The notes beneath the pieces are model-generated. The model had not been told where the DNA came from, did no database searches, and worked only from the letters and a program-made list of their open reading frames with translations. Source: an uncultured Actinomycetes bacterium (GTDB lineage Bacteria > Actinomycetota > Actinomycetes > Mycobacteriales > Nakamurellaceae). Taken from it: 64,000 nt of DNA. Every line of letters begins with the position of its first letter. Position 1 is the first letter of the stretch. The translations under genes were made by a program, and so were the position numbers. Shown here piece after piece: positions 481 to 20,595 of this stretch. Location of the stretch: contig CAZUXD010000007.1 of the NCBI GenBank assembly GCA_964624455.1, forward strand, positions 5,126 to 69,125, written 5' to 3'.

Positions 481-3983
<3,503 letters not shown>

Positions 3984-4975: not shown

Positions 4976-5377
4976 TCAGGCGGGCGGCGAGATGACCTGT
5001 AGCCCTGGGACGCGCCGGAACTCGTCGGTGTTGCCGGTGGCGAGGCTCATGCCGTGCGCCAGGGCGGTCGCCGCGATCCAGAGGTCATGGGCACCGATGA
5101 TCTGTCCCTTCGCGGCCAACTGGGACCAGACTTCGGCATGCACTCGAGCGATCTGATCGGTGATCTCGATCGCCGATATCCCCGCAAGTATGTGTTCGAC
5201 GAACGCGCTCCGACGGGCCCGTTGCGCGCCACTGGCCCGATGGACGCCATGCAGGAGTTCGCTGACGGTGATGACGCTGATCGCCCGCTCCTCGATCCCG
5301 ATGGCGCGGTCGACCGTAGGATTGGCAATTCCGCGTTCCCGGTCAACGAGCAGGCCGGTATCGATCAGGACTGCCAT
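4976..5377 (-). CDS. vapC: PIN-domain ribonuclease toxin (VapC family)
   Basis: 133 aa starting MAVLIDTG. Conserved acidic PIN residues D6, E40, D98, D118. It overlaps the upstream antitoxin gene by 13 nt. Confidence 0.85.
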   Translation of the reverse strand: MAVLIDTGLLVDRERGIANPTVDRAIGIEERAISVITVSELLHGVHRASGAQRARRSAFVEHILAGISAIEITDQIARVHAEVWSQLAAKGQIIGAHDLWIAATALAHGMSLATGNTDEFRRVPGLQVISPPA

Positions 5378-5622
5378 GCGTCCTCGGGCGGCGCTACGGT
5401 GGCCCGCGCCGCGCGGACGTCGTCCAGGAAGCTCGGATCCACCGGCGGGGCGTCGGTGATTAACTCCCGGAATCGCTCCGCCGAAATCAGATGGGGCCTT
5501 GGCGGAGAGATGACTGCGACACAGGCTCCGCTGCGCGTGACTTCGACCTTTTCGCCGGCAGCGACCCGGTTGAGCACGTCGGAGAAGGTGCGCGCCGCCC
5601 GGGTGGCGGTCATCCTGGTCAC
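5365..5622 (-). CDS. Type II antitoxin, Phd/YefM-like
   Basis: ~82-85 aa (GTG 5622 or ATG 5613). N-terminal …ATRAARTFSDVLNRVAAGEKVEVTRSG… is typical of Phd/YefM antitoxins. The gene is directly upstream of, and overlaps, vapC. Confidence 0.75.
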   Translation of the reverse strand: MTRMTATRAARTFSDVLNRVAAGEKVEVTRSGACVAVISPPRPHLISAERFRELITDAPPVDPSFLDDVRAARATVAPPEDAWQS

Positions 5623-5718
5623 GATCCCAAGGTATCAGATTAATCAAATTATGGCCGTATGTGCGGGCGCCTTGCGCCGGGCCGGCCGGTTGCCGGTTCG
5701 ATCGGGGGCACCGTAGTA

Positions 5719-5734
5719 TCGAACCTATGTTCGG
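5719..5734 (+). promoter_or_regulatory. LexA (SOS) box, actinobacterial type
   Basis: TCGAACCTATGTTCGG compared with the consensus TCGAAC-N4-GTTCGA (15/16 if the last base is counted). A TAGTAT -10-like hexamer (5713-5718) lies immediately upstream. The imuA' ATG (5727) lies inside the box. Confidence 0.75.
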
Positions 5735-6587
5735 TTCGCGTGAGGGCGGCGGTCGGGACCGCTCGGCGGTCGTCGCCGACCTGCGCCGCCGGATCGGCGC
5801 CATCGACGGGCCGGCCTGGACCGGCGCTGCATCCGAGAACCCGCCGGATGACGGTCGAGCGGCGGCCGGCCCGAGAGTCGGTGGCCCGATAGTCGATGAC
5901 GAGGCAGCCGGGGCCGGCGCCGATCACGGCAGACCCGCCGGGCGCACCGGGGTGCTCGCGGTTCCCGGTCCGCTGGCCGAGGCGTTGCCGCGCGGGGGAG
6001 TGCCCCGCGGTTGCGTGGTGAGCCTTGGCAGCGCCGCCCCCGGGCGAAACGGTGCCACCAGCCTGCTGCTGTCGCTGCTGGCCGCGCCGCCCGGCATCTG
6101 GGCGGCGGTGGTCGGTATGCCCGGTCTGGGGGTGCTGGCAGCCGCCGAACTGGGTGTCGACCTCGACCGGCTCGGCCTGATCCCCGATCCGGGACCGGAT
6201 GTGCTGCAGGTGCTCTCGGTGCTCGCGGACGGGGTGGACGTGATCGCCGCGGCGGCTCCGGCGAAGCTGCCGCCGGCCCGGCAGCGGGTGCTGGTCGGGC
6301 GGCTTCGCCAGGCCGGCACCGTGCTGCTGGTGATGGGCCGCTGGCCCGGCGCCGACCTGTCGATGACGGTGACCGGCGTGCGCTGGTCGGGTATCGGCCA
6401 GGGGCACGGCCGGCTCCGGGACCGGGAGATCGACGTGCAGGTCGCCGGCCGGCGTCTCGGCGTCGGATCGACCGTCACCTTGCTGCTGCGCTCCGACCGG
6501 ACCACCGTCACCGTCCAGGCGGCCGCTCCGGCGGCGCGGCCGGTCCCCGCCGAACTACCGGTCGCGGCGCGCGCCGGTGCGGGCTGA
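5727..6587 (+). CDS. imuA': ImuA'-like SOS mutasome accessory protein (RecA-fold-like)
   Basis: 286 aa. The core (…GCVVSLGS…GATSLLLSLLAAP…WAAVVGMPGLGVLAAAELGVDLDRLGLIPDPG…VDVIAAAAP…LRQAGTVLLVMGRWPGADL…RWSGIGQGHGRLRDREIDV) resembles mycobacterial ImuA' as I recall it. A LexA box sits at the start. imuB-dnaE2 is present in the same window. Confidence 0.7.
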   Translation: MFGSREGGGRDRSAVVADLRRRIGAIDGPAWTGAASENPPDDGRAAAGPRVGGPIVDDEAAGAGADHGRPAGRTGVLAVPGPLAEALPRGGVPRGCVVSLGSAAPGRNGATSLLLSLLAAPPGIWAAVVGMPGLGVLAAAELGVDLDRLGLIPDPGPDVLQVLSVLADGVDVIAAAAPAKLPPARQRVLVGRLRQAGTVLLVMGRWPGADLSMTVTGVRWSGIGQGHGRLRDREIDVQVAGRRLGVGSTVTLLLRSDRTTVTVQAAAPAARPVPAELPVAARAGAG

Positions 6588-6616: not shown

Positions 6617-8275
6617 TCATCCGGCGGGCTCCGCCTCTCCGGCACCGGTGCTCCTGGTCTCGTGCAGGTTCGCCAGGGCCGACTTCTCCGGGTTGGGGTC
6701 GGCGTTCCACTTCTGGCCGGTCGACCCGTCGCACGTCGTCACGATCACCTTGAGGTTCTTGTTGTAGGCGTCGTCGACCGGCCCGGGCGACATGCATAGC
6801 CCCACCGAGTCCACCAGCGTGTACTTCTGCTTGTACGGCAAGGGGTCTCCGCCGGCGTCCACCTTCTCGTATCGGGTCCAGGTCTGGTTGTCGACGTAGC
6901 TCCCGTTGCTGCAGGTGCTGACGTACACGTAGCCGCCGACGCTTCGCGAGCTCGTCAGACAATAGGTGCCGGACCCGGGGTACGTGCGCCACTGCACTCC
7001 GCCGGTCACCTCGACCTGGTCGAACTTCTGGTTCCACGCCACCGAACCGGGATTGGGATTCTGCTTGCACGGATACAGGATCAGGAACGACCCGCCGTTG
7101 TCGCCGGTGGCGGTGCTCTGGTTGGTCACGTCCAGGCAGCGGCCGAACAGCAGGAAGTTGACGACCTGGTGGTTCGGCTCACCCGCCTGCCCGGCGCCGA
7201 CGCTCGGCATCGGGTTGAAGGCCTGGTGCGGATCGGTGGTACCGCCGGTGCAGCCTTCGAGGGTCAACGGCTCGCCGCCTCGCTGCTGATCCACGTTGAG
7301 GCAATATCCGTTCAGCCCGCCCTTGCTGGTGGTCGAGCCCTCGAAGTGGCCGCTGTCGTTCACGCTCCACAGCAGGTTCCACGACGCCGTCCCGGGCTCG
7401 CCCTTGGCGGTGTTGGCGGGGCACTTGTCCAGCGTGATGTTGTTCGGCGTCGAACCGACCGTCGGCGAACGAAGGCAGAGCCCGGTCCCGTTGTCGTTCA
7501 ACCCCTTGTCACCCACGGTCGGCGTCAACTGGATGGTCAGGTTGTTCAGGTACGCCCACAGTTGCGGGGCCGGCACCGGCGCACCCCCGGTGGGGCAGGG
7601 TTGGATGACGACGCTGCTGCCGACCGCGGGCGAGATCCCGGCGTCCAGGCAGTAGCTGTCCGCCGAGCCGTCCTCGGGGAAGAGCGGCAGCGCCCCGCCG
7701 GCGATGTTGGCGTTGGTGGTGCTGACGTTGTAGGTGGCCCGCAGCGTGCGGCTGGGCTTCGCCGGGTCGTCGGTTCCGATCGACGTCAACAGCACGAAAC
7801 TCGGCACGGCGGTGTCGGAGCCCGACGCTTCGTCGTGGTAGTAGACCCCGTAGCCCGTGACACACTGCATCTGATGGTCCGCCAGCCACTCGGCGTCGCG
7901 GCCGGTCGGATCGGCGGTGAAGTAGGCGATGGTGACGACGTAGCTGCCGGAGCCGTCCGGGCCGAAAGTGCCGCTGAGGGGGTCGCACGGCAGCTTCGCG
8001 ACGTCGCCCATGAGCTGGCCGCTCTCGTCCTTCTCGCCCGCGGCCCGGATCTGCCCGAGCGCGACGTCCAGGCCGGATTCCGCGGCCTGCAGGCTCACGG
8101 CGCGCCGGTTGTCGAACCGGGTGATGCTGTTCTGCGTCATCGCGATGGGCAGCAGCAGGGCGGCCAGCGCCAGGCCGACGAGCATCACCAGCAAGGCCAT
8201 CGGGAGCGAACCGCGGTCGTCGTCCGGCGGGAACGCCCGACGCCCCGGGTTCGGATCGGGTCGGCAGGCAGTCAT
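6617..8275 (-). CDS. PilX-N-like pilus protein with two ricin-type beta-trefoil lectin modules
   Basis: 552 aa. Hydrophobic N-terminal anchor (GSLPMALLVMLVGLALAALLLPIAM) followed by …AVSLQAAESGLDVALGQI…, which is PilX_N-like. The C-terminal ~330 aa has repeated CL-x-(D/V)…Q-x-W/F triplets (QLW, LLW, QAF; QKF, QTW, QKW) and paired Cys. Its start overlaps the stop of the upstream pilin gene by 4 nt. Confidence 0.7.
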   Translation of the reverse strand: MTACRPDPNPGRRAFPPDDDRGSLPMALLVMLVGLALAALLLPIAMTQNSITRFDNRRAVSLQAAESGLDVALGQIRAAGEKDESGQLMGDVAKLPCDPLSGTFGPDGSGSYVVTIAYFTADPTGRDAEWLADHQMQCVTGYGVYYHDEASGSDTAVPSFVLLTSIGTDDPAKPSRTLRATYNVSTTNANIAGGALPLFPEDGSADSYCLDAGISPAVGSSVVIQPCPTGGAPVPAPQLWAYLNNLTIQLTPTVGDKGLNDNGTGLCLRSPTVGSTPNNITLDKCPANTAKGEPGTASWNLLWSVNDSGHFEGSTTSKGGLNGYCLNVDQQRGGEPLTLEGCTGGTTDPHQAFNPMPSVGAGQAGEPNHQVVNFLLFGRCLDVTNQSTATGDNGGSFLILYPCKQNPNPGSVAWNQKFDQVEVTGGVQWRTYPGSGTYCLTSSRSVGGYVYVSTCSNGSYVDNQTWTRYEKVDAGGDPLPYKQKYTLVDSVGLCMSPGPVDDAYNKNLKVIVTTCDGSTGQKWNADPNPEKSALANLHETRSTGAGEAEPAG

Positions 8276-8934
8276 GGGGTTCCCACCTCCTGGCAGACCG
8301 CTGTGTTTCCGTCGCCGTCGGCCGCCTCGTCCAGGCCGGTGGAGTTGAGCGCGGTGAACGTCACATCGGTGATGCTGATCGTCTGCTGATTGCCGCTGCC
8401 GGCCGTCGAGGACAGGTGGATGCGCAGCGCGCGCTTGTCGAGCACCGTGAACGGCGGCTGGGTGTGCCCGTTCCGCTTGACCGGCGTGATCTGGCCGGCG
8501 AGCACCTCCCAGGAGCTGAGCCCCGATGAGCCGCCGCCGGCGTCGACCGACCAGGTCCGTTCCTGCAGTTGCGACGTGATGGTGTTCACGCGCAACTGGG
8601 TGCAGACCGGGCTGCCGGTGTAGGTGCTCTGGTAGGCGACGTACCAGTTGCCGTCCGCGGCGGTTGTCGAGGCGCCGGAACCGTCGCTGGGGTCGGCGAA
8701 TGCCGAGGCGTACCGCAGCGAGGAGTCGAGCCGGCTGATCGCCGCGTTGATCTGCGCCGAGGTGTCGGTGACCCCCTGGGTCTTGTTGGTCGCGTGGTAC
8801 ATGGACACCATCGCGCCGGTGAAGATCGCCAGGAACAGGCCCATCAGCGCCATGCCCACCATGACCTCGAGCATGGTGATTCCGGAGTCGGCGCCTGCTG
8901 GGCGCCGCGTCGGAGGGCGGTGGGCGCGGATCAT
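8272..8934 (-). CDS. Minor pilin (prepilin-type N-terminal cleavage/methylation domain)
   Basis: 220 aa starting at ATG 8934: MIRAHRPPTRRPAGADSG|ITMLEVMVGMALMGLFLAIF, a class III signal peptide with Glu at +5. ATGA overlap with the upstream giant pilin gene. Confidence 0.75.
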   Translation of the reverse strand: MIRAHRPPTRRPAGADSGITMLEVMVGMALMGLFLAIFTGAMVSMYHATNKTQGVTDTSAQINAAISRLDSSLRYASAFADPSDGSGASTTAADGNWYVAYQSTYTGSPVCTQLRVNTITSQLQERTWSVDAGGGSSGLSSWEVLAGQITPVKRNGHTQPPFTVLDKRALRIHLSSTAGSGNQQTISITDVTFTALNSTGLDEAADGDGNTAVCQEVGTP

Positions 8935-11930
8935 CGGAAGGTCCACTGCTGGCTGCTGTCGGAGTCGTCGGCGGTGGCCATCTGGACCGAATACGTGTAG
9001 CCGTTGCGCCGGCTCCCCGTGCGGTTCGCGTCCAGGACGTTCCCGCTGGCGATCGCGGTGATCCTGCCGTCCGAGCCGATCGAGAATTGCTGCGCGGCGT
9101 TCCCCGCGGCGCAGGAGGCCAGGGTCGGGGGATCGCCCACGTTGGCGTCGGTCAGGCAGCGTTCCGATCCGCTGTACGTCGTCCTGATCGTGCCGTCGCC
9201 CGGCATCGACCACGTGGTGCCGCAGGAGTCGGAGAGCGTGACGGTCCAACTGCTTCCGCGGGTCAGGCAATAGCCGCCGTAGGACGAGCTCTCGATGGTG
9301 CCGCCGGTGATGAGCCAGGTGAACTGCGTGGTCGCGGTGCGGCCGGTCCCGTCGTCGGTGACGGTCACGCTGATGCTCGTGCCGGTCGTCTCGCACGGCG
9401 CCGCGACGGACAGGGTGTGCTGGTTGTCGAAGCTGGCCCAAGAGGCGTTGGTCGACACCGAATAGCTCACGGTCCGGCTGCCGGCGCCGGCCAGCCCGGC
9501 CGAGAGGTCAAGGGACGCGCCGTTGTCGTACTGGCATTCACCCTGCCATCCCCCGCTCGTCGCGCTGGGCGCCGTTGCCCGGTCGGCCAGGTGGAACGAC
9601 AGCACGTACCACGTGAACGTCGCCCGTGCGGTGGCGCCGGTGGCGTCCCTGACCTCGACGGTGATCGGCCCCTTGACGCCGGCGGCATTCGGCGTGCCGG
9701 ACATCCTTCCGGTGCTGGCCAGTGTCACCCCGCTGGGCAGGCTGCCCGAAACGACGCGGTACGTCAGCGGCGCGGTGCCGCCGGAGGCCATGGCGCCCAG
9801 CGAGAGATCGACGGTGTCCTTGGGGGAGTCGCCGAGGATGGTGATCTGGTCGGGGATCGTCAGGCTCAGGCCGCCGACGACGTTCCAATTGAACGTCGCG
9901 CTCGCCGACTGCGCTGGGATCTGCTTGTCGGTGATGGTGACGGTGATCCCGGCGATGGTCGTCGGTGCGGCGGGGGCGGTTCCGGTGATCAGGCCGCTGG
10001 CCTGGTTGATCTGCAACCAGGCCGGCTTGTTGGTCAGCTTGTACGTGCAGGGGCCGACGGAGCTGCACGTCCCGGCGATCTGCAGGCTGATGCCCTGGCC
10101 GACTTCGCTTTGCTGGTCGCCCGGGTTGGTGATGGAGGGCCCGTCGACGACGCGCCAGGTGAACGGCGCGGTGGTGGCACTGGCGCCGCCGGCGTCGGTG
10201 GCGGTGATCGTGATGCCGGAGGTGACGGAGGGGCTGCCCGGTGCCCGGCCGGTGATGGTTCCGCTGGACCGGCCGAGGCTGAGCCAGCCGGGCAGATTCG
10301 TTGCGCTGTAGGTGCATCCGCTGTTCGGGCAGGTTGCGGTCAGTTGCAGGCTCACCTGCTGGCCGACGGTGGCGCGCTGATCACCCGGATTCGTGATCAC
10401 CGGCTTGGCGTACACCCTGATCGAGAACGACGCGCTGGTGGTCTGGTTCGCCGCGGTGTCGGAGACGGTCAGGGTGACGGGATACACCCCTGTCCCGGTC
10501 GGGGTTCCGGTGATGCGGTATCCGGCGGCCGAGTCTCCGGTGAGCGTGGTGCCGGTGGGCAGCCCGGTGGCGCTCATCGTGTAGTTGCCGCTGCCGCCGG
10601 TGAGCGGCAGCGGGAGGTTGAGGGCGGTTCCCAGGGTGAGGTTCACGTCCGGCAACGCCGGCGGCGTGAGCGCCTCGTACACCCGCCAGGTGAAGGAACC
10701 CTCCGCGGTCCGCTTCCCGGAACCGTCGGTGACGGTGACGGTGACGCCGAAGCTGCCGGCGGCAGACGGTGCGCCGGTGAACGTGCCGGTGGTAGAGCCC
10801 AGGCTGATGCCGGTCGGCAGACCTGTTGCCGCATAGCGGTAGTTGCTGCCGCTGCCACCGGTTGCGACGAGCGTGAACGGGGTGATGCCCTTCCCCTTGG
10901 TGGCGACCTGGTCCACGACGGGTCCGAGGGCGAGCCGCGGCAGCACCGTCCAGGTGAACTGGTTCCCGGTCGCCTGGCGCAGGAAGGCGTCTCGCACGGT
11001 GATTCGGGTTCGGACGGTTCCCGCGGCACCGTCGACCGTTCCGGTGATGTGCGCGTCCTGGTTGAGCAGCAGGCCCGACGGCAGCGCGTCCGCGGACCAG
11101 GTGAAGGAGGGCACCCCGCCGGACAGCGTGCAGATCGGCTGCGGCTCGCCCGCCGGGGCGGATCCGAACACCGGCAGGTCGACCTGGTCGCCCACCGCGA
11201 CCGCCTGGTTCTTGCAGGCCGACAGGTTTGGCATCGGCGGCGGTTCGGTGTTGAAGTTGAACATCGGGTCGGCGTCGCCGTTGAGCAGGGTGGCCCCGAT
11301 GCGGTAGCAGGTCCCCGAATCGCAGGAGGCGTCCGGCCAGGTGACGGCGACGACCACGCGCACGTACCGGACGTAGGACACGTCCGGCGAATCGCTGCCG
11401 TTGGTGCAGTTCTGGCTCGCCTGGTCGTCCGAACTGACCCGCCGGCAGGTGCCGACCAGGTAGCTGACGGAATAGTCCACGCCGCCCACTGTCTGCACCA
11501 CCGGCGTGGTCGGCAGGTCCGGGTCTGCGGACGGCGCGGGCGCGGCCGCCTGGTCCATCCCGTCGAGCCATGGCTGCACCGGGGTGCCGGCGAACGACGC
11601 GAACTGCGCGGACACATCACTTCCGCCGCGGCCGGCGACCGCTGCCGCCGCGCCGACGCTGCGCGCGTGATCGATGGCTGCGGTGGTCACGGCGGCCGCG
11701 GATTGCGCCGAGCGCAGGTAGTTCACCGACGACAGGGTGCGGACGAAGAGCGTCGTCAGCGCCGCGGTGACCACGGTGATCAACGTGATGGAGACGATGA
11801 CCTCGAGCAGCGTGAAGCCTCCCGTGCGGTCGGTCTGCACAGGGCGGGGCCGGAAAGGGAACAGGCGCAGGGAAGGTTCCGGGCGGCGGGCGTTACCCGG
11901 GACCCGTGATCGATGCCGCGGTCGGAACAT
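8931..11930 (-). CDS. Giant modular pilin: class III signal peptide + ~7 Ig-like (He_PIG/cadherin-like) repeats + C-terminal ricin-type lectin
   Basis: 999 aa from ATG 11930: …QTDRTGG|FTLLEVIVSITLITVVTAAL. About seven ~90-aa repeats each end in F(T/S/N)W-x-V (…GLPTGISL…TGAPS…VTVTDGSG…FTWRV). The C-terminal ~130 aa has CLT…QQF…VLDA…QQWTF. The longer 1258-codon ORF would overlap pilO and is rejected. Confidence 0.8.
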   Translation of the reverse strand: MFRPRHRSRVPGNARRPEPSLRLFPFRPRPVQTDRTGGFTLLEVIVSITLITVVTAALTTLFVRTLSSVNYLRSAQSAAAVTTAAIDHARSVGAAAAVAGRGGSDVSAQFASFAGTPVQPWLDGMDQAAAPAPSADPDLPTTPVVQTVGGVDYSVSYLVGTCRRVSSDDQASQNCTNGSDSPDVSYVRYVRVVVAVTWPDASCDSGTCYRIGATLLNGDADPMFNFNTEPPPMPNLSACKNQAVAVGDQVDLPVFGSAPAGEPQPICTLSGGVPSFTWSADALPSGLLLNQDAHITGTVDGAAGTVRTRITVRDAFLRQATGNQFTWTVLPRLALGPVVDQVATKGKGITPFTLVATGGSGSNYRYAATGLPTGISLGSTTGTFTGAPSAAGSFGVTVTVTDGSGKRTAEGSFTWRVYEALTPPALPDVNLTLGTALNLPLPLTGGSGNYTMSATGLPTGTTLTGDSAAGYRITGTPTGTGVYPVTLTVSDTAANQTTSASFSIRVYAKPVITNPGDQRATVGQQVSLQLTATCPNSGCTYSATNLPGWLSLGRSSGTITGRAPGSPSVTSGITITATDAGGASATTAPFTWRVVDGPSITNPGDQQSEVGQGISLQIAGTCSSVGPCTYKLTNKPAWLQINQASGLITGTAPAAPTTIAGITVTITDKQIPAQSASATFNWNVVGGLSLTIPDQITILGDSPKDTVDLSLGAMASGGTAPLTYRVVSGSLPSGVTLASTGRMSGTPNAAGVKGPITVEVRDATGATARATFTWYVLSFHLADRATAPSATSGGWQGECQYDNGASLDLSAGLAGAGSRTVSYSVSTNASWASFDNQHTLSVAAPCETTGTSISVTVTDDGTGRTATTQFTWLITGGTIESSSYGGYCLTRGSSWTVTLSDSCGTTWSMPGDGTIRTTYSGSERCLTDANVGDPPTLASCAAGNAAQQFSIGSDGRITAIASGNVLDANRTGSRRNGYTYSVQMATADDSDSSQQWTFR

Positions 11931-11941
11931 GGCGGCCGTTC

Positions 11942-12736
11942 TCAGTTTGCCGCGCCGAGTTGCTCGGCGAGCGCCGCCTCCTGTTTCGGAGTCTGCGGTG
12001 CGACGAAGATCTGCAGTTGGGTCGTCAACACCCACTGCTTCGTCGTCGGAGCGGCTTGCGCGGCGTCGCCGCCGTCCGACACCGGAGCCGGGGTGAACGC
12101 GGCCGAGACCACCAGCGCGCGGCGCGGACCCGCCTTTTCGAGCAGCGAGAGGAAGTCCCGCTGCTCGTCCATGGACCCGTCGGTGACGAGCGCGACGGCG
12201 ATCGAGTACAACTGTCCGGCCGGGCCCTGCGTGCCTTTCGACGTGGATCCCTTGCCCGAGGCGTCGGCGTCGGTCTTGGCGGCGCGGTCGGCGGCATCGC
12301 CCGCCACCGACTCCGCCTTCTCGACCGGGTTGTTCCCGGCCTTGGCGTCGGACGCGCTCGGACTCTTGCCCTTCGGCGCGGCGATCTTGGTGGGCGCGCC
12401 CGGCGTGATGCTGGCCACCGTCACGTGCGCGGCCTTCGCGTGCTCGGCCACCTGGTCGGTGAACGAGTCGAGGTCGTGCTGCACGGGCAGGCCCGCCTGC
12501 AGCACGTCCACTTGCTGCCGCAACTCGCCGGCATGCGCCCGCTCGGCGCGCAACTGGCTGATCTTGTTGTGCAACAGCAGGTTCTGCATCTGGGTATCGG
12601 CCACCTGCTGCTCCGTCGCGGCCTTGCTGTCGAGCTGCGGGGAGAGGAAGAACAGCCATGCGACGGCCGCCAGCGCGACCGCGACGACGACCCCGCCGGC
12701 GATCCACACCCGGTCCATGCGGCGCGCGACCATCAC
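11942..12736 (-). CDS. pilO: PilO-like type IV pilus assembly protein
   Basis: 264 aa with a single N-terminal TM (VWIAGGVVVAVALAAVAWLFF), then a coiled-coil region (…QMQNLLLHNKISQLRAERAHAGELRQQVDVLQ…) and a low-complexity insert. Position is after pilM/pilN. ATGA overlap with pilN. Confidence 0.65.
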   Translation of the reverse strand: MMVARRMDRVWIAGGVVVAVALAAVAWLFFLSPQLDSKAATEQQVADTQMQNLLLHNKISQLRAERAHAGELRQQVDVLQAGLPVQHDLDSFTDQVAEHAKAAHVTVASITPGAPTKIAAPKGKSPSASDAKAGNNPVEKAESVAGDAADRAAKTDADASGKGSTSKGTQGPAGQLYSIAVALVTDGSMDEQRDFLSLLEKAGPRRALVVSAAFTPAPVSDGGDAAQAAPTTKQWVLTTQLQIFVAPQTPKQEAALAEQLGAAN

Positions 12737-13437
12737 TTGCCTCCGGCGGCGTCGAACCGATGCGAGAGCCGGGCGTCGGTCAGGGTGAGCTGCAGGTTGT
12801 ACAGCGTTCCGGTGGCAACCTTCTCGTTGGACGCCGGGAACGGGTCGAAGACGCCGGGGATCGCGGCGAGCTTGGCGATGAAGGCGGGCACGTCCGAGAT
12901 CTTGCTACCGGTGCCGGCCAGCGTGACGCTCCCGATATGGGTTGCGCCCGAAGCATCGAGCACGCCGGCGCCGGCCGCCGGTCGCGCGTTGGCGCCGGCA
13001 ACGGTAGAGGGGATCGTCACGTCCATCTCCTCGATCGTCATGCCGTCCGGAAGTGCCTGCCAGATCTCGCCCAACAGCGCGTCCACGTCGACGTCCGCGG
13101 CCATCAGGGTCGCGGTCTGCCCGCGCACCTCGTCGATGGCCCTTTGCAGCGCGGTGATGTCGGAGTAGGTGCGCTGTTCCTTCAGCAGCGCTTCGGTGGT
13201 GATCTGTTCGGTGGCGAGGTCCTGCGCGGCGAGCTTCGCCAGGCTCTTGGTGTAGACGTAACCGCCGGCGCCGGCCGCGGCGACGAGCAGCAGCGCGAGC
13301 AGCACGACGAACCGGACCACCTTGAGCCGCCGGGATGCGATCAACTCGGGCGGGGTGAGGTCCGCGACGATGTGCCAGCCCGGCATGTCGGTGCTCGTGG
13401 GGGCGGCGGACGGGGCAGCCTCGACCGCGGTCACCAC
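12733..13437 (-). CDS. pilN: PilN-like fimbrial assembly protein
   Basis: 234 aa: …LTPPELIASRRLKVVRFVVLLALLLVAAAGAGGY…, i.e. a TM after a basic stretch followed by a periplasmic-type domain. Located directly downstream of pilM. Confidence 0.65.
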   Translation of the reverse strand: MVTAVEAAPSAAPTSTDMPGWHIVADLTPPELIASRRLKVVRFVVLLALLLVAAAGAGGYVYTKSLAKLAAQDLATEQITTEALLKEQRTYSDITALQRAIDEVRGQTATLMAADVDVDALLGEIWQALPDGMTIEEMDVTIPSTVAGANARPAAGAGVLDASGATHIGSVTLAGTGSKISDVPAFIAKLAAIPGVFDPFPASNEKVATGTLYNLQLTLTDARLSHRFDAAGGK

Positions 13438-13450
13438 GTCACACCTGCGT

Positions 13451-14512
13451 TCATGCCGCCACCCCCAGGGCCAGGCCCACCGCGACGGCGGAGGACTCGG
13501 TCGATTGCCGTGCGGATGGCGTCGAGTCGGTGATGTGCCGCATCGGGGTCGCGAGCGTCACCGGCGTGCCCATCTCTTCCGCTATGTGGTCGACGAGGCC
13601 GGGCAACAGGGCTCCGCCGCCCGTCAGCGAGATCCGCTCGACGCTGACCCGATGTTGGGTGGCGAAGAAGTGGATTGATCCTCGGATCTCGGTGATCAGC
13701 GGCCGGACCGCCTCGCGCAGCGCCCGGGCGGCCTGGCTCTCGCCGTCCAGGCCGATCGTCCGCTTGGCGGATTCGGCCTCCTCCTCGGAGAGGTTCGCCT
13801 GGTCGGCGAGCCTGCTGGTCCACTCGGCGCCGCCGCGCAGCACCACCCGGACGACCTGGGCGATGCCGTTGGTGTGCACCACGATCGTGGACAGGTGCGC
13901 CCCGATGTCGACCAGCGCCTCGATGACGGCGCCGCCCGATCCGATGGACCGCAGCAGGCCGAAGGGTGCGAGGTCGACCCGCGCCACCTTCAGCTTCGCC
14001 TTCTCCACCGCGCGCACCGCGGTCAGCACCGGCCCGCGCGGAATCCCGGTCAACAGGCCGGTGATGGTGCTGCCCCCCGCGTCGGAATCCTCGATGCGCG
14101 AGAAGTCGAGCAGCGCCTGGTCCAGCGGCAGCGCGATCACCTCCCGCGCCTTGAACGGCAGGGTCTGCCGCAGTTGCGCATCGGACAGGTTCGGCAGCTT
14201 GAGGTCTCGCACCACCACTTGCTGGCTGGTCACCCCGAGCACCACGCGCCGCGATTTGATCTTGTTCTCGGCCCACAGCTTCTTCAGGGCGGCGGTGACG
14301 GTGCCGGGATTGACCACGGCACCGTTCACCACCGCACCATCTGGGAGAGGCACAGCGCCCAGGCTGTGCACGCTCACTGTCGGCCGACCCGCCACGACCT
14401 TCGGAATGAGCACCGCAGCACGCACCGCCGTCGCACCGAGATCGACGCCGACGACGCGGCCGCCGGAATTGGTGACGCTCAGCTTGTTCGCGGAGCGTGC
14501 GCGGTTGGTCAT
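13451..14512 (-). CDS. pilM: Type IV pilus assembly protein PilM (actin-like ATPase fold)
   Basis: 353 aa: …VVGVDLGATAVRAAVL…VVVRDLKLP…VDIGAHLSTIVV…LTGGGALLPGL…, a typical PilM/FtsA-like pattern. Confidence 0.85.
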   Translation of the reverse strand: MTNRARSANKLSVTNSGGRVVGVDLGATAVRAAVLIPKVVAGRPTVSVHSLGAVPLPDGAVVNGAVVNPGTVTAALKKLWAENKIKSRRVVLGVTSQQVVVRDLKLPNLSDAQLRQTLPFKAREVIALPLDQALLDFSRIEDSDAGGSTITGLLTGIPRGPVLTAVRAVEKAKLKVARVDLAPFGLLRSIGSGGAVIEALVDIGAHLSTIVVHTNGIAQVVRVVLRGGAEWTSRLADQANLSEEEAESAKRTIGLDGESQAARALREAVRPLITEIRGSIHFFATQHRVSVERISLTGGGALLPGLVDHIAEEMGTPVTLATPMRHITDSTPSARQSTESSAVAVGLALGVAA

Positions 14513-14555
14513 GGAAGGTCCTTGGGTTGGTCAGAACTGGACGTCGGACGTCAAA

Positions 14556-15011
14556 TCACGTGGTTGGCGGTGCCGCGGTACCTCCACCGACGGAACCGCC
14601 AGCAGAAGTGTCGAAGGTGAATGCGTTGCCCGAAGTGTGCTTTCCGTTGGGGTTGTACCCCGTGATCGTCACACCGTCCCCGCCGCTGTTTGCCTCAATT
14701 GTCATGACGGTCCCGGCAGAAAGCAGCACCGGATTGTCGGCACAAAGGTCGAAAGAGCCGGGGCCGGTGGATGTTGCGAGGCTTTCCCACGTGTGAGTAT
14801 CGGTGTAGCATTCCTGCACAACCACCGCCGCATTCCGAACATCGGCCTGCGTGGCCTTGTCCACCGCGTTCTTCTGGTAGTTCAAGTACAGCGGAATCGC
14901 GATGGCGATCAGGATGCCGATGATCACCACGACCACCAGCAACTCGATCAGGGTAAACCCCTTGTCCTCTCGAGCCCGGCGGGCCCGAATCGACTCGTAC
15001 CGTGACAACAT
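14556..15011 (-). CDS. pilA: Major type IV pilin
   Basis: 151 aa from ATG 15011: MLSRYESIRARRAREDKG|FTLIELLVVVVIIGILIAIAIPLYLNYQ. Canonical G/FTLIE cleavage-methylation motif. GGGAGG RBS upstream. A Cys pair lies in the C-terminal half. Confidence 0.9.
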   Translation of the reverse strand: MLSRYESIRARRAREDKGFTLIELLVVVVIIGILIAIAIPLYLNYQKNAVDKATQADVRNAAVVVQECYTDTHTWESLATSTGPGSFDLCADNPVLLSAGTVMTIEANSGGDGVTITGYNPNGKHTSGNAFTFDTSAGGSVGGGTAAPPTT

Positions 15012-15074: not shown

Positions 15075-16301
15075 CTATTGCGCGATGCTCTGGTAGATGG
15101 TGAACATCGGCAGATAGAGCGAGATCACCATGGAGCCGATGACGGCGCCCAATACGACCACCATCAGCGGTTCGATCGCGGACGCGAGCGCCTCGGTCGC
15201 CGTTTTGACCTCATGGTCGTAGTAATCGGCAGTCTTATCGAGCATTTCAGTGATTTGGCCGGTCTCTTCTCCGACCTCGACCATCTGCACCACCATCGGC
15301 GGGAAGACCGGGTGCTCGGACATCGGCTCGGACATGCTCCGCCCGCCGCGGACGGCCGCGCGCACGTCGGCCATGGCGCTTCCGATCACGGCGTTGCCCG
15401 CGGTGCCGCCGACGACCTCCAGGGCCTGCAGCGCCGGCACCCCGACCTGCAGCAGCGTGCCGAGGTTTCGCGCCCAGCGGGCGAGCGCGATCTTGGTGAA
15501 GAGGGTGCCGAACACCGGAAGCTTCAGCTTGAGCCGGTCGACCTTCAGTTGGAAGGCCTCGTTGGCGCGGTATGCCTTGCGGTATGCGGTGACCGAGGCG
15601 ATCAGTACGACGAGGAACGCCGGGACCCACCACCACGCGTTGTGCGACAGCGCGATCAGGATCTTGGTCGGCAGCGGCAACGTACCGCCCAGATCGGTGA
15701 ACATCTTCTCGAACACCGGCACGATGAAGACGATGACGCCGATCCCCAGGATCAGCGAGAAGCACAGCACGATGACGGGGTACGTCATGGCGCCCTTGAT
15801 CTTGGCGCGGAGCTCCGCGTCCGCCTCGTACATGGTGGCGATCCGGCCGAGCGCCTCGTCCAGGAAACCGCCGGTCTCGCCGGCCCGCACCATGTTGACC
15901 ATGAGGGTGGGGAAGTGGTCGGGATGCTCGGCCATCGCCGTGGAGAGCGGCGAGCCGTGCTGCACGTCGGCCTTGATGCGGCGGACCGCCGACTTCAGCC
16001 CCGGCTTGGTGATCTGCTGCTCCAGGATCGTCAGGGCCCGCAGCAGGCTCAGGCCCGACGACGTCATGGACGCGAACTGCCGGGTGAACAGGGCCAGGTC
16101 CTTGGGCTTGGTGCGCTGCCGAAGGCCCGGAATGTTGATCTCGCGCTGCAGGCCGTGGCCCGCGGCGGCGATCGACGTCGGGGTGAGCTTGCGGACCGTC
16201 AGGGTCTGCGCGGCAGACTCGGCGCTGTCGGACTCGATGGTCCCCTTGACGAGCTTCCCGGAGGAATCCAGCGCCTCGTAGGCGAAGGCGGTCGCAGCCA
16301 T
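15075..16301 (-). CDS. pilC: Type IV pilus platform protein (GspF/PilC family)
   Basis: 408 aa with two GspF-type repeats (…LSLLRALTILEQQ… / …VPALQALEVVGG…) and three TM segments. Confidence 0.9.
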   Translation of the reverse strand: MAATAFAYEALDSSGKLVKGTIESDSAESAAQTLTVRKLTPTSIAAAGHGLQREINIPGLRQRTKPKDLALFTRQFASMTSSGLSLLRALTILEQQITKPGLKSAVRRIKADVQHGSPLSTAMAEHPDHFPTLMVNMVRAGETGGFLDEALGRIATMYEADAELRAKIKGAMTYPVIVLCFSLILGIGVIVFIVPVFEKMFTDLGGTLPLPTKILIALSHNAWWWVPAFLVVLIASVTAYRKAYRANEAFQLKVDRLKLKLPVFGTLFTKIALARWARNLGTLLQVGVPALQALEVVGGTAGNAVIGSAMADVRAAVRGGRSMSEPMSEHPVFPPMVVQMVEVGEETGQITEMLDKTADYYDHEVKTATEALASAIEPLMVVVLGAVIGSMVISLYLPMFTIYQSIAQ

Positions 16302-16377
16302 GCCGGATTCATCGGCAGGTCAGCAAGGAACTTGAACGATCCGTCCACGGCTCCGGCCGGCCGATGGCGACGGCCGC

Positions 16378-18045
16378 TCAGACCGTGACCCGCAGCACCT
16401 CTTCCAGCGTCGTCAGGCCCTGCTTGGCCTTGTCCAGGCCGTCCTCCCGGAGTGGGATCATCCCTTCGGCGCGCGCCGCCTTCGCGATGTCGCTGGCGGC
16501 CGCATCCGAGACGGTCAGCCGTTCGATCTCCTCCGAGACCGGCATCACCTCGTTCACCGCGAGCCGCCCGCGGTAACCCGTACCCGAGCAGGAGCGGCAG
16601 CCGACCGCGCGGAAGAGCTCGTCCGGACGGCCGAGCGTCTCCCACGGCCAGCCGGCCGCGGTGAGGTCCTCGCTCGCCGGCTGGTAGGACTCTTTGCACC
16701 AGTCGCACAGGCGCCGCACCAGCCGTTGCGCCAGCACCGCGTCGATCGACGAGCCCACCAGGAACTGTTCGATGCCCATCTCCACGAGCCTCGTCATCGC
16801 CGACGGCGCGTCGTTGGTGTGCAAGGTGGAAAGGACGAGGTGCCCGGTGAGCGCGGCCTCCACCGCGAGTTGCGCCGTGACCCGGTCGCGGATCTCGCCG
16901 ACCAGCACCACGTCCGGGTCGGAACGCAGGATCGCCGGCAGCACCGCGGCGAAGGTCAGGCCCGCCTTGGGGTTCACCTGGATCTGGTTGATGCCGTCGA
17001 TCCGGTACTCGACCGGGTCCTCGACCGTGATGACGTTGACTTCCGGCCGGGCGATCTCGGTCAGGGTGGCGTACAGCGTGGTGGACTTGCCCGACCCCGT
17101 GGGCCCCGTCACCAGCACCATGCCGTGCGGTTTGGTGAAGCTGGCCGAGAAGCGGCGGTAGGTCTCCTCCGCGAAGCCGAGCTTTCGCAGGTTCAGGTCG
17201 ATGCTTCCGGTGTCGAGGATCCGCAGCACGATCTTCTCGCCCCACACCGTCGGCAGCGTCGCCGTTCGCAGGTCCACGTGCCGGCCGCCCACCTCCATGG
17301 TGATGCGGCCGTTCTGCGGCACCCGGCGTTCGGTGATGTCGAGCCCGGACATGATCTTCAGCCGGGAGATCAGCGCCGCCTGGATCGGGCGCGGAACGGT
17401 GTCGGTGTGGTGCAGCACGCCGTCGATCCGCACCCGCACCCGCATGTCGTGCTCGCTGGGTTCGAGGTGGATGTCCGAGCCGCGGGAGGTGATGGCCCGC
17501 TCCAGCAGGTTGGACACGAAGCGGACCACGGGGGCGTCGTCGTCGACGTCGGCTAGGGCGTCGGACAGCGCGCTGTCGTCGACCATGCTGGCCGCGGCCT
17601 CGCCGAGGTCGGTGTTGCTTCTCGTGAAGCGATCGAGCAGCTTCGTCAGGTCGCCGCTCGAGAGCACGACCGGCCGGACCTGCAGCCCCGTCGCGGCGCG
17701 GATGTCGTCGATGGCGAGCACGTTGCCGGGGTCGTCCAGCGCGACGGTGACGGTGGAATCGGTGGCCGACACCGGAACCATCTGGTGCCGCCGAGCCAGC
17801 GCGAGCGGGACCAGCGACATGGCCTTCTGATCGATCGTCATCGAGCTCAGTTCGGCGACGTCGAGGCCGTAGGCGTAGGCGATGGCGGAGGCCAGTTCGA
17901 ACTCGGTGACGACCTGGTCGTCGACCAGCACGGTCCGCAGGGGGCGCCCGCTCCGCTCGGCGTTGGCGGCCGCGGCTTGCAGCGTGTGCTCGTCGACCCC
18001 GCGCGAGCGCAGCGTGTTGAACACCGTCTGGCTGGCAGGATCCAT
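16378..18045 (-). CDS. pilB: Type IV pilus assembly ATPase (GspE/PilB family)
   Basis: 555 aa. N-terminal GSPII_E_N-like domain, Walker A GPTGSGKSTT, Asp/His boxes, and a C-terminal tetracysteine (CDWC…CRSC). Confidence 0.9.
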   Translation of the reverse strand: MDPASQTVFNTLRSRGVDEHTLQAAAANAERSGRPLRTVLVDDQVVTEFELASAIAYAYGLDVAELSSMTIDQKAMSLVPLALARRHQMVPVSATDSTVTVALDDPGNVLAIDDIRAATGLQVRPVVLSSGDLTKLLDRFTRSNTDLGEAAASMVDDSALSDALADVDDDAPVVRFVSNLLERAITSRGSDIHLEPSEHDMRVRVRIDGVLHHTDTVPRPIQAALISRLKIMSGLDITERRVPQNGRITMEVGGRHVDLRTATLPTVWGEKIVLRILDTGSIDLNLRKLGFAEETYRRFSASFTKPHGMVLVTGPTGSGKSTTLYATLTEIARPEVNVITVEDPVEYRIDGINQIQVNPKAGLTFAAVLPAILRSDPDVVLVGEIRDRVTAQLAVEAALTGHLVLSTLHTNDAPSAMTRLVEMGIEQFLVGSSIDAVLAQRLVRRLCDWCKESYQPASEDLTAAGWPWETLGRPDELFRAVGCRSCSGTGYRGRLAVNEVMPVSEEIERLTVSDAAASDIAKAARAEGMIPLREDGLDKAKQGLTTLEEVLRVTV

Positions 18046-18269
18046 GGTGCTCCTCGGCTCAAGAATGGGTGGTCGGGCTGGGCGACGATGCGTCGCCGAG
18101 CGTATCCCCGCGGCGCCCCCCGATCGCCCATCCGTGGTCTTTTTCGGCGCGCGCGTTCAACTCTTGAGCGTTGCTGCCGTTTAGTACCGGTGACGAGACC
18201 GCCGGGGCTTGGTACCGGTGACGAAACCGCCGAGGCGGCGCGCCGAACGGGGCGCGCGCAGCGGGCGGT

Positions 18270-20466: not shown

Positions 20467-20595
20467 CGGCACGCTTTCAATCGGGCATCTGTTCATTCTA
20501 GTCACTTGCTACACATGTCCGTCCCGCTGAATGGACCGTTGTCGTACCTTCGTTCTAAACTCAGAACATAGTTCAGGAGCCGTTTGGAGGGTGTG

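Follow-up and report, generated by a model that had tools for sequence, protein, structure and literature searches.

Among described pilins, PilB of Streptococcus sanguinis with its vWA module and PilC with its ConA-like lectin module are modular pilins, and models of PilA-PilC show a complex that sits at the tip and binds glycans (PMC8179133; PMC9934059). The InterPro catalogue of Raynaud et al. (2021; PMC8179133, Dataset S1) lists 43 pilins with 1-5 He_PIG repeats (IPR012902-PF05345), an architecture within the 15 commonest among modular pilins, together with four pilins that combine He_PIG with a PF13385 lectin and one pilin-ricin protein (IPR012902-IPR000772). Dataset S2 of the same work has PilY1 proteins in which the N-terminal module is PF05345 or IPR000772. 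As for Actinomycetota, the zoospores of Actinoplanes bear pili, and type IV pilus operons of the kind discussed below occur there, according to the account of Kimura (2019) in PMC8325347; the zoospore pili are those of Actinoplanes missouriensis. Clusters in Rubrobacter and other Actinomycetota are under WhiG control (PMC8325347; PMC12871210). In the literature searched, there was no experimental study of any member of the actinobacterial protein family described here.

The locus lies in a window of 64,000 nucleotides, that is, the whole stretch of DNA analysed, from an uncultured, high-GC actinobacterium, and centers on a minus-strand gene (the strand is an addition to the initial annotation) that runs from an ATG at 11930 to a stop at 8931-8933 and encodes 999 aa (Table 1). 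By its domain matches, the product is a modular pilin in the sense of Raynaud et al. (2021), with N_methyl, He_PIG and Ricin_B_lectin all past their curated Pfam cut-offs in the HMM scan suggested by the initial annotation. That annotation had put it at about seven times the size of a normal pilin, and it is indeed 6.6 times as long as the operon's major pilin precursor (151 aa). We consider it probable that this protein is a minor pilin of a retractile type IVa pilus which presents a glycan adhesin at the tip on an Ig stalk. As in S. sanguinis PilB and PilC, adhesion modules are grafted on an N-terminal pilin module, the host is a monoderm, and there is a small partner minor pilin. However, the streptococcal proteins are bimodular with short linkers, whereas here a seven-domain Ig stalk is placed between carrier and lectin, and the predicted lectin is a ricin-type trefoil rather than the ConA-like module of PilC. 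The novelty implied by the initial annotation, which knew of no described example, was overstated, since pilin-He_PIG and pilin-ricin proteins are catalogued and the family has about 600 cluster representatives; what survives of it is that the catalogue contains no protein that combines He_PIG with ricin (PMC8179133, Dataset S1). Within a modular pilin family that has already been catalogued, the protein is a rare variant, and its novelty is modest.

Table 1. Coordinates of the modular pilin gene, its parts and the surrounding pil operon (a slash marks the predicted cleavage site).
Feature	Position	Strand	Evidence
552-aa ricin-domain protein	6617-8275	-	Ricin_B_lectin 61-64 bits; ATGA overlap with 220-aa pilin gene
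Second minor pilin, 220 aa, ...ADSG/ITMLEV...	8272-8934	-	start overlaps stop of modular pilin gene (ATGA)
Modular minor pilin gene	8931-11930	-	translation, GC3 0.91, Pfam N_methyl + He_PIG x6 + Ricin_B_lectin
Ricin-type (CBM13-like) module, aa 875-999	8934-9308	-	Pfam, PDB sequence matches, collinearity
Seven He_PIG Ig-like repeats	9309-11222	-	Pfam, self-alignment, AF2, Foldseek
Repeat R7	9309-9599	-	
Repeat R6	9600-9875	-	
Repeat R5	9876-10145	-	
Repeat R4	10146-10409	-	
Repeat R3	10410-10676	-	
Repeat R2	10677-10940	-	
Repeat R1	10941-11222	-	
Pro-rich linker (DPMFNFNTEPPPMPNL)	11223-11270	-	pLDDT <50 at aa 221-228
Pilin module, aa 39-220	11271-11816	-	AF2 model, conserved E43 and four Cys, phmmer family
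Leader peptide, 38 aa, Arg-rich, Gly-Gly end	11817-11930	-	sequence; 8 aa if GTG used
PilO-like alignment protein	11942-12736	-	Pfam PilO E=0.004, under cut-off; 10 nt upstream of modular pilin ATG
PilN-like protein	12733-13437	-	assigned by position
PilM	13451-14512	-	PilM_2 143 bits
Major pilin PilA, 151 aa, ...EDKG/FTLIELLVVVV...	14556-15011	-	IV_pilin_GFxxxE 36.9 bits vs 16.3
PilC platform protein	15075-16301	-	T2SSF 229 bits
WhiG/FliA-type promoter-like match, 5' of pilA	15223-15249	-	pattern scan
WhiG/FliA-type promoter-like match, 5' of pilC	16309-16335	-	pattern scan
PilB extension ATPase	16378-18045	-	T2SSE 448 bits and MshEN
WhiG/FliA-type promoter-like match, 5' of pilB	18141-18167	-	pattern scan
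PilT retraction ATPase, divergent	18270-19610	+	TIGR01420 459 bits vs 319; homology from ~18558

The reading frame is judged to be coding because third-position GC (GC3) is high, with the same value of 0.91 for the whole gene and from the first mature codon onward. The choice of start is ambiguous. A GTG at 11840 (11838-11840) would give a product of 969 aa with a leader of eight residues (MQTDRTGG/F), and the 30 codons separating it from the ATG (11841-11930) have a GC3 of only 0.70; leaders of the homologues measure 13-45 aa as called. The weak codon bias of the long leader, and the lack of a clear Shine-Dalgarno sequence upstream of either start on inspection, would fit a miscalled gene that begins 3' of the pilin motif, or one that is decaying or unexpressed. 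This we regard as extremely improbable: the ORF continues for 999 codons without interruption, residues of the signal peptide are kept across hundreds of homologues, and the operon position and the stop/start overlaps are conserved in relatives. Translation from downstream of the pilin motif, which the initial annotation had named as fatal to its proposal, is not what is found, because ATG 11930 and GTG 11840 both precede the motif.

The prepilin motif reads DRTGG/FTLLEVIVSITLITVV, and the N-terminus has the make-up of a class III signal peptide, with a hydrophilic leader followed by a hydrophobic stretch containing Glu5 (DRTGG/FTLLEVIVSITLITVVTAALTTLF). Pfam N_methyl matches aa 37-58 at 23.9 bits against a cut-off of 21.2, while TIGR02532 stays slightly under its own (15.4 vs 16.3 bits). 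Of 55 aligned homologues, 90% or more keep Glu5 (E43), and C162, C175, C203 and C208 are conserved as well; when the pilin module is aligned by itself, all 22 sequences share Gly-1 and Glu5. The AF2 model of this module (pLDDT 88.7, pTM 0.77) begins with the hydrophobic alpha1N that carries Glu5 and consists of a helix (7-62) and four strands, giving the lollipop fold of a long alpha1 helix and an antiparallel beta-sheet in canonical topology. The prepilin motif and the pilin-like globular region that follows it were thus both correctly recognized at the outset. Beyond alpha1N, neither the sequence nor the fold of the module could be matched to a solved pilin. A Foldseek search of the PDB returned no significant match to a solved pilin (best E=0.12), and the family profile gave only weak matches to known pilins, confined to the N-terminal helices (E of at least 0.05). 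When the protein was compared with the core minor pilins of the GspH/I/J/K or FimU/PilV/W/X sets, no equivalog HMM reached its cut-off; the NCBIfam matches to GspH (18.3 bits vs 80), GspI (18.3 vs 44) and PilV (14.6 vs 52) are all restricted to the N-terminal helix.

A phmmer search places the pilin module in a family of about 600 (606) cluster representatives of 187-1904 aa. The module stands alone in members of 187-230 aa, and the longer members extend it with He_PIG only, with He_PIG and Laminin_G_3 (P0025, P0189), or with He_PIG and a C-terminal ricin module (P0002, P0027, P0131, P0152 and the protein described here); the last architecture was found in only five or six clusters, all metagenomic. 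Because relatives carry the pilin module bare, with Ig repeats, or with Ig repeats and Laminin_G_3, the C-terminal part appears to be an adhesion cassette that can be swapped on a carrier that is itself conserved. The ricin module appears dispensable for core function because most family members are without it, among them the orthologues in named genomes (Actinoplanes and others; 577-831 aa).

Pfam He_PIG (PF05345) scores 198 bits over six stretches against a cut-off of 24, and the degenerate R7 (aa 778-874), missed by Pfam, aligns with the other six in a self-alignment. AF2 models the repeats as beta-sandwiches, six of them at a pLDDT above 90 and R7 at 50-73, so the original count of about seven Ig-like repeats holds. 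The Foldseek matches are to tandem Ig arrays, among them those of the SraP adhesin (E=7e-13) and the GhpA grappling hook, and SraP of Staphylococcus aureus is also the best sequence match among solved structures (PDB 4m00-4m03; E=2.6e-8 for 4m03). In both SraP and the present protein, a lectin module is in series with a tandem Ig/cadherin-like stalk. However, SraP, a serine-rich repeat protein anchored by sortase, has a legume-type lectin N-terminal to the stalk, while here the carrier is a pilin and the ricin-type module is C-terminal. The Pro-rich linker, of low confidence in the model, is probably flexible. The seven domains are estimated to span about 25-30 nm. This is roughly the thickness of a Gram-positive wall and would suit a protein that needs no extended pilus, with the pilin module as a membrane or pseudopilus anchor, the Ig array crossing the thick wall and the lectin at the surface, in the manner of a bindosome or a T2SS pseudopilus; many family members are auto-annotated by JGI as 'pseudopilin PulG'. 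Such an arrangement is nevertheless very unlikely. Across the family the stalk has anywhere between 0 and more than 12 repeats, which speaks against a ruler of set length that spans the wall, and the operon encodes PilB, the retraction ATPase PilT and a major pilin of the classical kind. Actinoplanes, with operons of this type, has zoospore pili in the account given in PMC8325347.

The C-terminal module is supported as a ricin-type beta-trefoil by several sequence comparisons. Ricin_B_lectin (PF00652; cut-off 29) scores 47.1 bits at aa 884-996 of the full protein and 53.1 bits on the C-terminal 129 aa alone, the PDB sequence matches include RCA/ricin B chains and actinohivin (E ~4e-6) as well as mistletoe lectins, and the module is collinear with the ricin modules of five other family members. 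AF2 gives no confident fold over aa 875-999 (pLDDT ~30), probably because few of the aligned homologues carry the module. The ricin-type module originally proposed is upheld by Pfam, with a trefoil predicted from sequence, and the AlphaFold check suggested at the same time yields a confident pilin module and six confident Ig domains, a weaker R7 and a poorly modelled ricin region. A three-fold internal repeat is visible, but its (QxW)3-like motifs (TTW, QQF, QQW) are only partly canonical, with one full match to the canonical form and two variant copies. Lectin activity is uncertain because the canonical LD aspartate is present in only one of three subdomains (gamma, aligned to VLDV of the RCA B chain) and is not conserved among the other ricin-tipped members. 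The trefoil could thus bind some other ligand or be a degenerate cap, leaving adhesion to the Ig repeats or to the neighboring ricin-domain protein; the incompletely canonical QxW motifs, the AF2 result and the absence of the module from most of the family point the same way. On balance we think this rather unlikely. The Pfam score is far past its cut-off, the best PDB matches are genuine sugar-binding trefoils, and Laminin_G_3, a lectin of another type, takes the equivalent position in relatives, which suggests that the slot serves glycan binding.

The gene is the seventh in line after pilB-pilC-pilA-pilM-pilN-pilO and so sits among genes for filament machinery. Judged by gene content, this is a complete retractile type IVa pilus operon, with a divergent pilT (64% identity of the product to Planomonospora PilT) and no pilD in the window. 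The PilN-like protein has no HMM match, the product at the orthologous position in L004 matches PilN weakly, and the PilO position is conserved in loci L002, L004 and L015-L017. Other actinobacterial clusters share the layout pilB, pilT, pilC, pilA, pilD, pilM, pilN, pilO, followed by the triad of genes described below, and they differ from the 64-kb window in the place of pilT and in containing pilD. Processing is assumed because no pilD is found in the window, and a prepilin peptidase encoded outside it would cleave the protein after Gly38. Promoter-like matches to the WhiG/FliA consensus from PMC8325347 precede pilB, pilC and pilA, recalling the WhiG-controlled clusters of other Actinomycetota.

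Three genes, for the modular pilin, the 220-aa pilin and the 552-aa ricin-domain protein, are joined by ATGA overlaps that couple their translation. The 220-aa pilin scores 18.5 bits with N_methyl, under the cut-off of 21.2, and its Gly-1 and Glu5 are invariant among five orthologues. In the 552-aa protein, an invariant (D/E)RGSLP(M/L) is followed by a hydrophobic N-terminal helix without Glu5 in the orthologue alignment, which makes it a putative tip cap similar to PilX or GspK; an HMM search lent this no support, and of its 66 homologues one JGI entry bears the name PilX. Actinoplanes, Jatrophihabitans, Planomonospora, Planobispora and Virgisporangium keep the triad, which was seen in 10 loci from relatives (two short metagenomic contigs, loci with the pil operon around them, and four named genomes by tblastn). 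The surrounding pil operon is present in Actinoplanes sp. and Jatrophihabitans telluris, among others, and in the Actinoplanes sp. genome the He_PIG pilin, small pilin and ricin protein follow one another as they do here. As in the tip complexes of type IV filaments (GspH/I/J/K, or FimU-PilVWX with the PilY1 adhesin), minor pilins of presumably low abundance are encoded together, one is without Glu5 (as is GspK), and the adhesive modules would be at the tip. Unlike those sets, this one has three proteins instead of four and PilY1, lacks the PilY1 beta-propeller, and has its adhesive modules fused directly to pilin-like subunits.

By analogy with these sets, the modular pilin may be located at the tip. 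It could instead enter the shaft sporadically as a decorating minor pilin, with the Ig stalks as sideways bristles that allow multivalent, Velcro-like adhesion. The protein keeps Glu5, which is expected where another subunit sits above, the Pro-rich linker behind its pilin module looks flexible, and monoderms lack the secretin pore that could hold back bulky subunits. Raynaud et al. (PMC8179133) allow a location in the filament body given a flexible linker. We still find shaft decoration unlikely. The tight ATGA coupling to a small pilin and a cap-like protein without Glu5 points to a stoichiometric complex, and a 100-kDa appendage on many subunits would probably impede passage through the peptidoglycan. 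Stoichiometric coupled sets are a known pattern of tip or priming complexes.

For the tip-presented adhesin that we prefer, the pilin module would enter the filament, most probably in a three-protein tip complex with the two co-translated partners, in which the 552-aa protein would act as the GspK/PilX-like cap. The Ig array would then be a stalk that keeps the beta-trefoil off the pilus, the predicted trefoil would bind a glycan on a surface or another organism, and PilT-driven retraction would draw the cell or spore onto it. A more elaborate and speculative version, to which we assign a low probability, is a long-reach grappling tip with two lectins, the ricin trefoils of the cap and a second, unrelated ricin trefoil at the end of the Ig tether, put under tension by PilT. 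If true, it would amount to mechanically tuned, glycan-specific capture by type IV pili, undescribed for any pilus, and the as yet unknown adhesin on the zoospore pili of actinomycetes would be this conserved triad. The seven-domain tether of such a tip (an estimated ~30 nm) can be likened to titin and GhpA as an extensible, force-bearing element.

Type IV pili are ubiquitous, and target recognition by them is, to our knowledge, known for only a few pathogens. The 999-aa pilin considered here is encoded by the seventh gene of a minus-strand operon, which runs from PilB through PilC, PilA, PilM, a protein in the PilN position and PilO to the long pilin itself, and then to a small pilin and a ricin protein (see table). 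With PilT encoded divergently beside the operon (TIGR01420, 459 bits, cut-off 319), the pilus system should be retractile. This differs from the arrangement in relatives, where pilT lies between pilB and pilC. In most relatives pilD is found between pilA and pilM; the corresponding interval (13451-15011) is without it, and a tblastn search with a Planomonospora PilD found none in the whole 64-kb window. The flanks of the operon are core chromosome (his operon, PIN toxin, dnaE, ftsY and recD2), and on one relative's contig the pilus operon adjoins dnaE in the same way. An ATGA overlap joins the stop of the long pilin to the start of the small pilin, and the same overlap joins the small pilin to the 552-aa ricin protein, which, as read from the sequence, implies translational coupling of these three genes (hereafter the triad).

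Features of the window, with the evidence for each (a slash separates leader from mature pilin)
Feature	Position	Strand	Evidence or remark
HisD + HisC domains	508-3327	+	one uninterrupted frame, no stop between; hisB, hisH next
PIN-domain (VapC-like) toxin ORF	4976-5803	-	
Candidate antitoxin ORF	5365-5622	-	small, upstream of the toxin ORF, different frame
308-aa ORF	5661-6587	+	directly downstream of pilus operon, opposite strand
Ricin protein, 552 aa	6617-8275	-	Ricin_B_lectin 61-64 bits
Minor (small) pilin, 220 aa	8272-8934	-	3' of the long pilin; ADSG/ITMLEV
Long modular pilin, 999 aa	8931-11930	-	
PilO		-	weak match; adjoins the long pilin upstream
PilN-position protein		-	position between PilM and PilO
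PilM		-	143 bits
Major pilin (PilA), classical, 151 aa		-	EDKG/FTLIELLVVVV
PilC		-	T2SSF 229 bits
PilB		-	T2SSE 448 bits
WhiG/FliA-type promoter match, pilA	15223-15249	-	coding strand, just upstream
WhiG/FliA-type promoter match, pilC	16309-16335	-	coding strand, just upstream
WhiG/FliA-type promoter match, pilB	18141-18167	-	coding strand, just upstream
DUF222 protein	20584-22725	+	HNH-endonuclease-associated family; short tandem peptide repeats (PEPSC; GDFVGTA)

An unlikely rival reading takes the protein for an artefact. On the minus strand, the frame that opens at ATG 11930 and closes with the stop at 8931-8933 encodes 999 aa, and its third-position GC of 0.91 is usual for genes in a window of roughly 70% GC. 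The start codon is ambiguous: ATG 11930 lies 10 nt past the pilO stop and yields an Arg-rich leader of 38 residues, while GTG 11840 yields one of 8 residues (MQTDRTGG/FTLLEV). No clear Shine-Dalgarno sequence was found ahead of either, and GC3 is 0.70 over the 30 codons that separate them versus 0.91 over the first 100 mature codons; long leaders are called in homologues too. The initial annotation had raised the concern that translation might start downstream of the prepilin motif, but both candidate starts lie upstream, which places the motif inside the translated frame. When 22 sequences of the pilin module (aa 39-220) are aligned, neither Gly-1 nor Glu5 varies, and 90% or more of 55 homologues keep Glu5; these alignments indicate that the class III motif residues are under selection.

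In Pfam, the long pilin matches N_methyl (23.9 bits, cut-off 21.2; aa 37-58), the Ig-like He_PIG repeat (198 bits, cut-off 24; six stretches) and Ricin_B_lectin (47.1 bits, cut-off 29; aa 884-996). The N_methyl and ricin matches, on whose significance the initial annotation had staked its reading, therefore both hold, and the architecture it described proved correct: a signal peptide, a pilin module, seven He_PIG-type repeats and a ricin-type C-terminus. An AlphaFold2 model of the pilin module, built with 55 aligned sequences (pLDDT 88.7, pTM 0.77), begins with a helix of 56 residues, to which short helices and an antiparallel sheet of four strands are added; this predicted topology is the pilin lollipop. 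Across the family, C162, C175, C203 and C208 are invariant or nearly so. Foldseek gave no significant match of the module in the PDB, and the family profile gave only weak alpha1N matches among PDB sequences, with no GspH/I/J/K-type class assignable. In the full-length model (pLDDT 76.5), a Pro-rich linker of low confidence (aa 221-228) is followed by six beta-sandwich domains with pLDDT above 90 (aa 235-778) and a seventh with pLDDT of 50-73 (aa 805-873). The seven repeats are mutually alignable, with the common pattern LPxG(L/I)xL...G.ITGTP...(V/I)T(V/I)T.TD...F(T/S)W.V. Foldseek matched the full model to Ig domains in tandem, namely those of titin I65-70, contactins, GhpA (the grappling hook of Aureispira), SraP and protocadherins. 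Among solved structures, the Ig region comes closest in sequence to the cadherin-like stalk in SraP, an S. aureus adhesin (4m03, E=2.6e-8).

The last 125 residues were not modelled (pLDDT about 30), which probably reflects how few of the aligned homologues have the ricin module. The beta-trefoil proposed at the C-terminus thus rests on sequence evidence: the C-terminal 129 aa alone reach 53.1 bits for Ricin_B_lectin, PDB sequence matches with E from 4e-6 to 1e-4 are to the B chains of RCA and ricin, to mistletoe lectins and to actinohivin, and a three-fold internal repeat is visible with the motifs TTW, QQF and QQW. The canonical LD aspartate is kept only in the gamma subdomain, in a VLDA motif, where it aligns with VLDV of the RCA B chain. 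A rival reading is that the trefoil is not a lectin.

A homology search with the whole protein gave 321 matches, and the N-terminal pilin module is present in about 70 of the best 120. Searched alone against 1.84 billion cluster representatives, the module defines a family of 606 proteins at E ≤ 1e-3 (302 at E ≤ 1e-10) with lengths from 187 to 1904 aa. One member of 192 aa (P0181) has N_methyl only and is a naked carrier; members with an extension carry two or more He_PIG repeats, with the longest arrays reaching 9 at the least, which in two proteins (P0025, P0189) end in a ConA-like Laminin_G_3 lectin. Terminal ricin modules are found in the long pilin and in P0002, P0027, P0131 and P0152, and P0128 falls just short of the threshold. 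Every ricin-tipped member derives from a metagenome assembly. The pilin module is shown by these members to be one conserved carrier with a varying cassette: none, Ig only, Ig plus ConA-like lectin, or Ig plus ricin lectin. Since the nearest relatives by pilin module are without ricin, the ricin module is patchily distributed. The six ricin modules, that of the long pilin included, are mutually collinear. A recent duplication within the operon was rejected as the origin of this module, which has no significant similarity to the unrelated ricin domains of the 552-aa neighbour. The family offers a natural series for asking how attachment by pili may depend on the length of the stalk and the type of lectin.

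Modular pilins have been defined and catalogued as 1,219 proteins in 264 architectures (Raynaud et al., 2021; PMC8179133). The 43 pilins there with 1-5 PF05345 (He_PIG) repeats are named as one of the 15 commonest architectures and are given 'no clear function'; PF05345 occurs together with the PF13385 lectin in four proteins, a single protein joins the pilin motif IPR012902 to ricin (IPR000772), and no entry among the 264 joins PF05345 to IPR000772 (PMC8179133). Full-text literature searches found a pilin with He_PIG or a ricin-type beta-trefoil discussed nowhere else. The initial annotation knew of no described example; the He_PIG and ricin combination is absent from the catalogue, but the general idea and most of its elements are already listed there, and this is a new domain combination in a large family. 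With it, modular pilins would come to include long stalks of many domains as well as bimodular proteins; no new principle is revealed.

The last gene of the triad encodes two or three ricin-type trefoils behind an invariant (D/E)RGSLP(M/L) motif followed by a hydrophobic N-terminal helix without Glu5, which we take to be the pattern of GspK/PilX-type tip subunits. Pfam and NCBIfam returned no PilX_N or GspK match for its N-terminus, its database name is only 'RICIN domain-containing protein', and one homologue is named PilX in automated JGI annotation. The motif, the helix and this name are the grounds for the PilX-like reading, by which the protein probably caps the tip of the pilus and acts as an adhesin. 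In Actinoplanes, Jatrophihabitans, Planomonospora, Dactylosporangium and Jidongwangia it is likewise kept at the end of the type IV pilus operon, and its closest named relative is from Jatrophihabitans telluris (43% identity). In orthologues of the small pilin, Gly-1 and Glu5 are invariant. A scan of the genome contig collection with the long pilin found no relatives; a PilM alignment served as query instead, and the triad is kept at every examined locus that has the pilin (four contigs of metagenomic or genomic origin, Planobispora longispora, Planomonospora sp., two Virgisporangium species, Actinoplanes sp. and J. telluris).

We infer that the long pilin is a glycan adhesin presented at the pilus tip. 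It would be processed and incorporated into the pilus with the pilin module as its carrier, and its two co-translated partners, the small pilin and the ricin protein that lacks Glu5, would complete the tip complex. Taking about 4 nm per Ig domain, the seven domains would add up to a stalk roughly 25-30 nm long that distances the trefoil from the filament; the trefoil would bind a glycan ligand, and retraction by PilT would then reel the cell in. S. sanguinis PilC was shown to be a modular pilin that bears a lectin, and was modelled together with PilA and PilB as a complex at the tip (Shahin et al., 2023; PMC9934059). Rival readings place the long pilin along the shaft as decoration, or display it at the membrane or on a pseudopilus. 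If the tip model is true, the triad is a likely adhesin set of actinomycete pili, including those of the zoospore-forming Actinoplanes, Planomonospora and Virgisporangium. A more useful lead than the long pilin itself is the triad as a whole, an uncharacterised, probable tip set with ricin lectins that is conserved among the pilus operons of actinomycetes.

Earlier work on actinobacterial type IV pili concerns the zoospores of Actinoplanes and the role of the pili as targets of WhiG, and sigma-28-family control is reported for the pil clusters of Actinoplanes and Rubrobacter (PMC8325347). The consensus TAAA-N14-16-GCCGATAA, with 2 mismatches or fewer allowed, has 6 matches in the whole window versus 3.1 in shuffles, and about 0.08 would be expected in the stretch upstream of pilA, pilC and pilB; the three matches there suggest sigma-28-family control of the pil genes. 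In a 4-Mb relative (L002, 15674-17448), genes for a sigma-70/sigma-28-type factor and a FlgN-like protein directly follow the triad, with EAL and GGDEF genes nearby, neighbours that fit c-di-GMP and WhiG-type control of these pili.

Elsewhere in the window, the HisD (histidinol dehydrogenase) and HisC (histidinol-phosphate aminotransferase) domains represent a hisD-hisC fusion or else two genes in the same frame, and the PIN toxin and its candidate antitoxin are wedged between the his and pilus operons. The 308-aa ORF, whose codon-position GC pattern is ambiguous, looks like a real protein. The region around the DUF222 gene is of lower GC (0.675-0.68) and is therefore possibly a mobile or selfish element.
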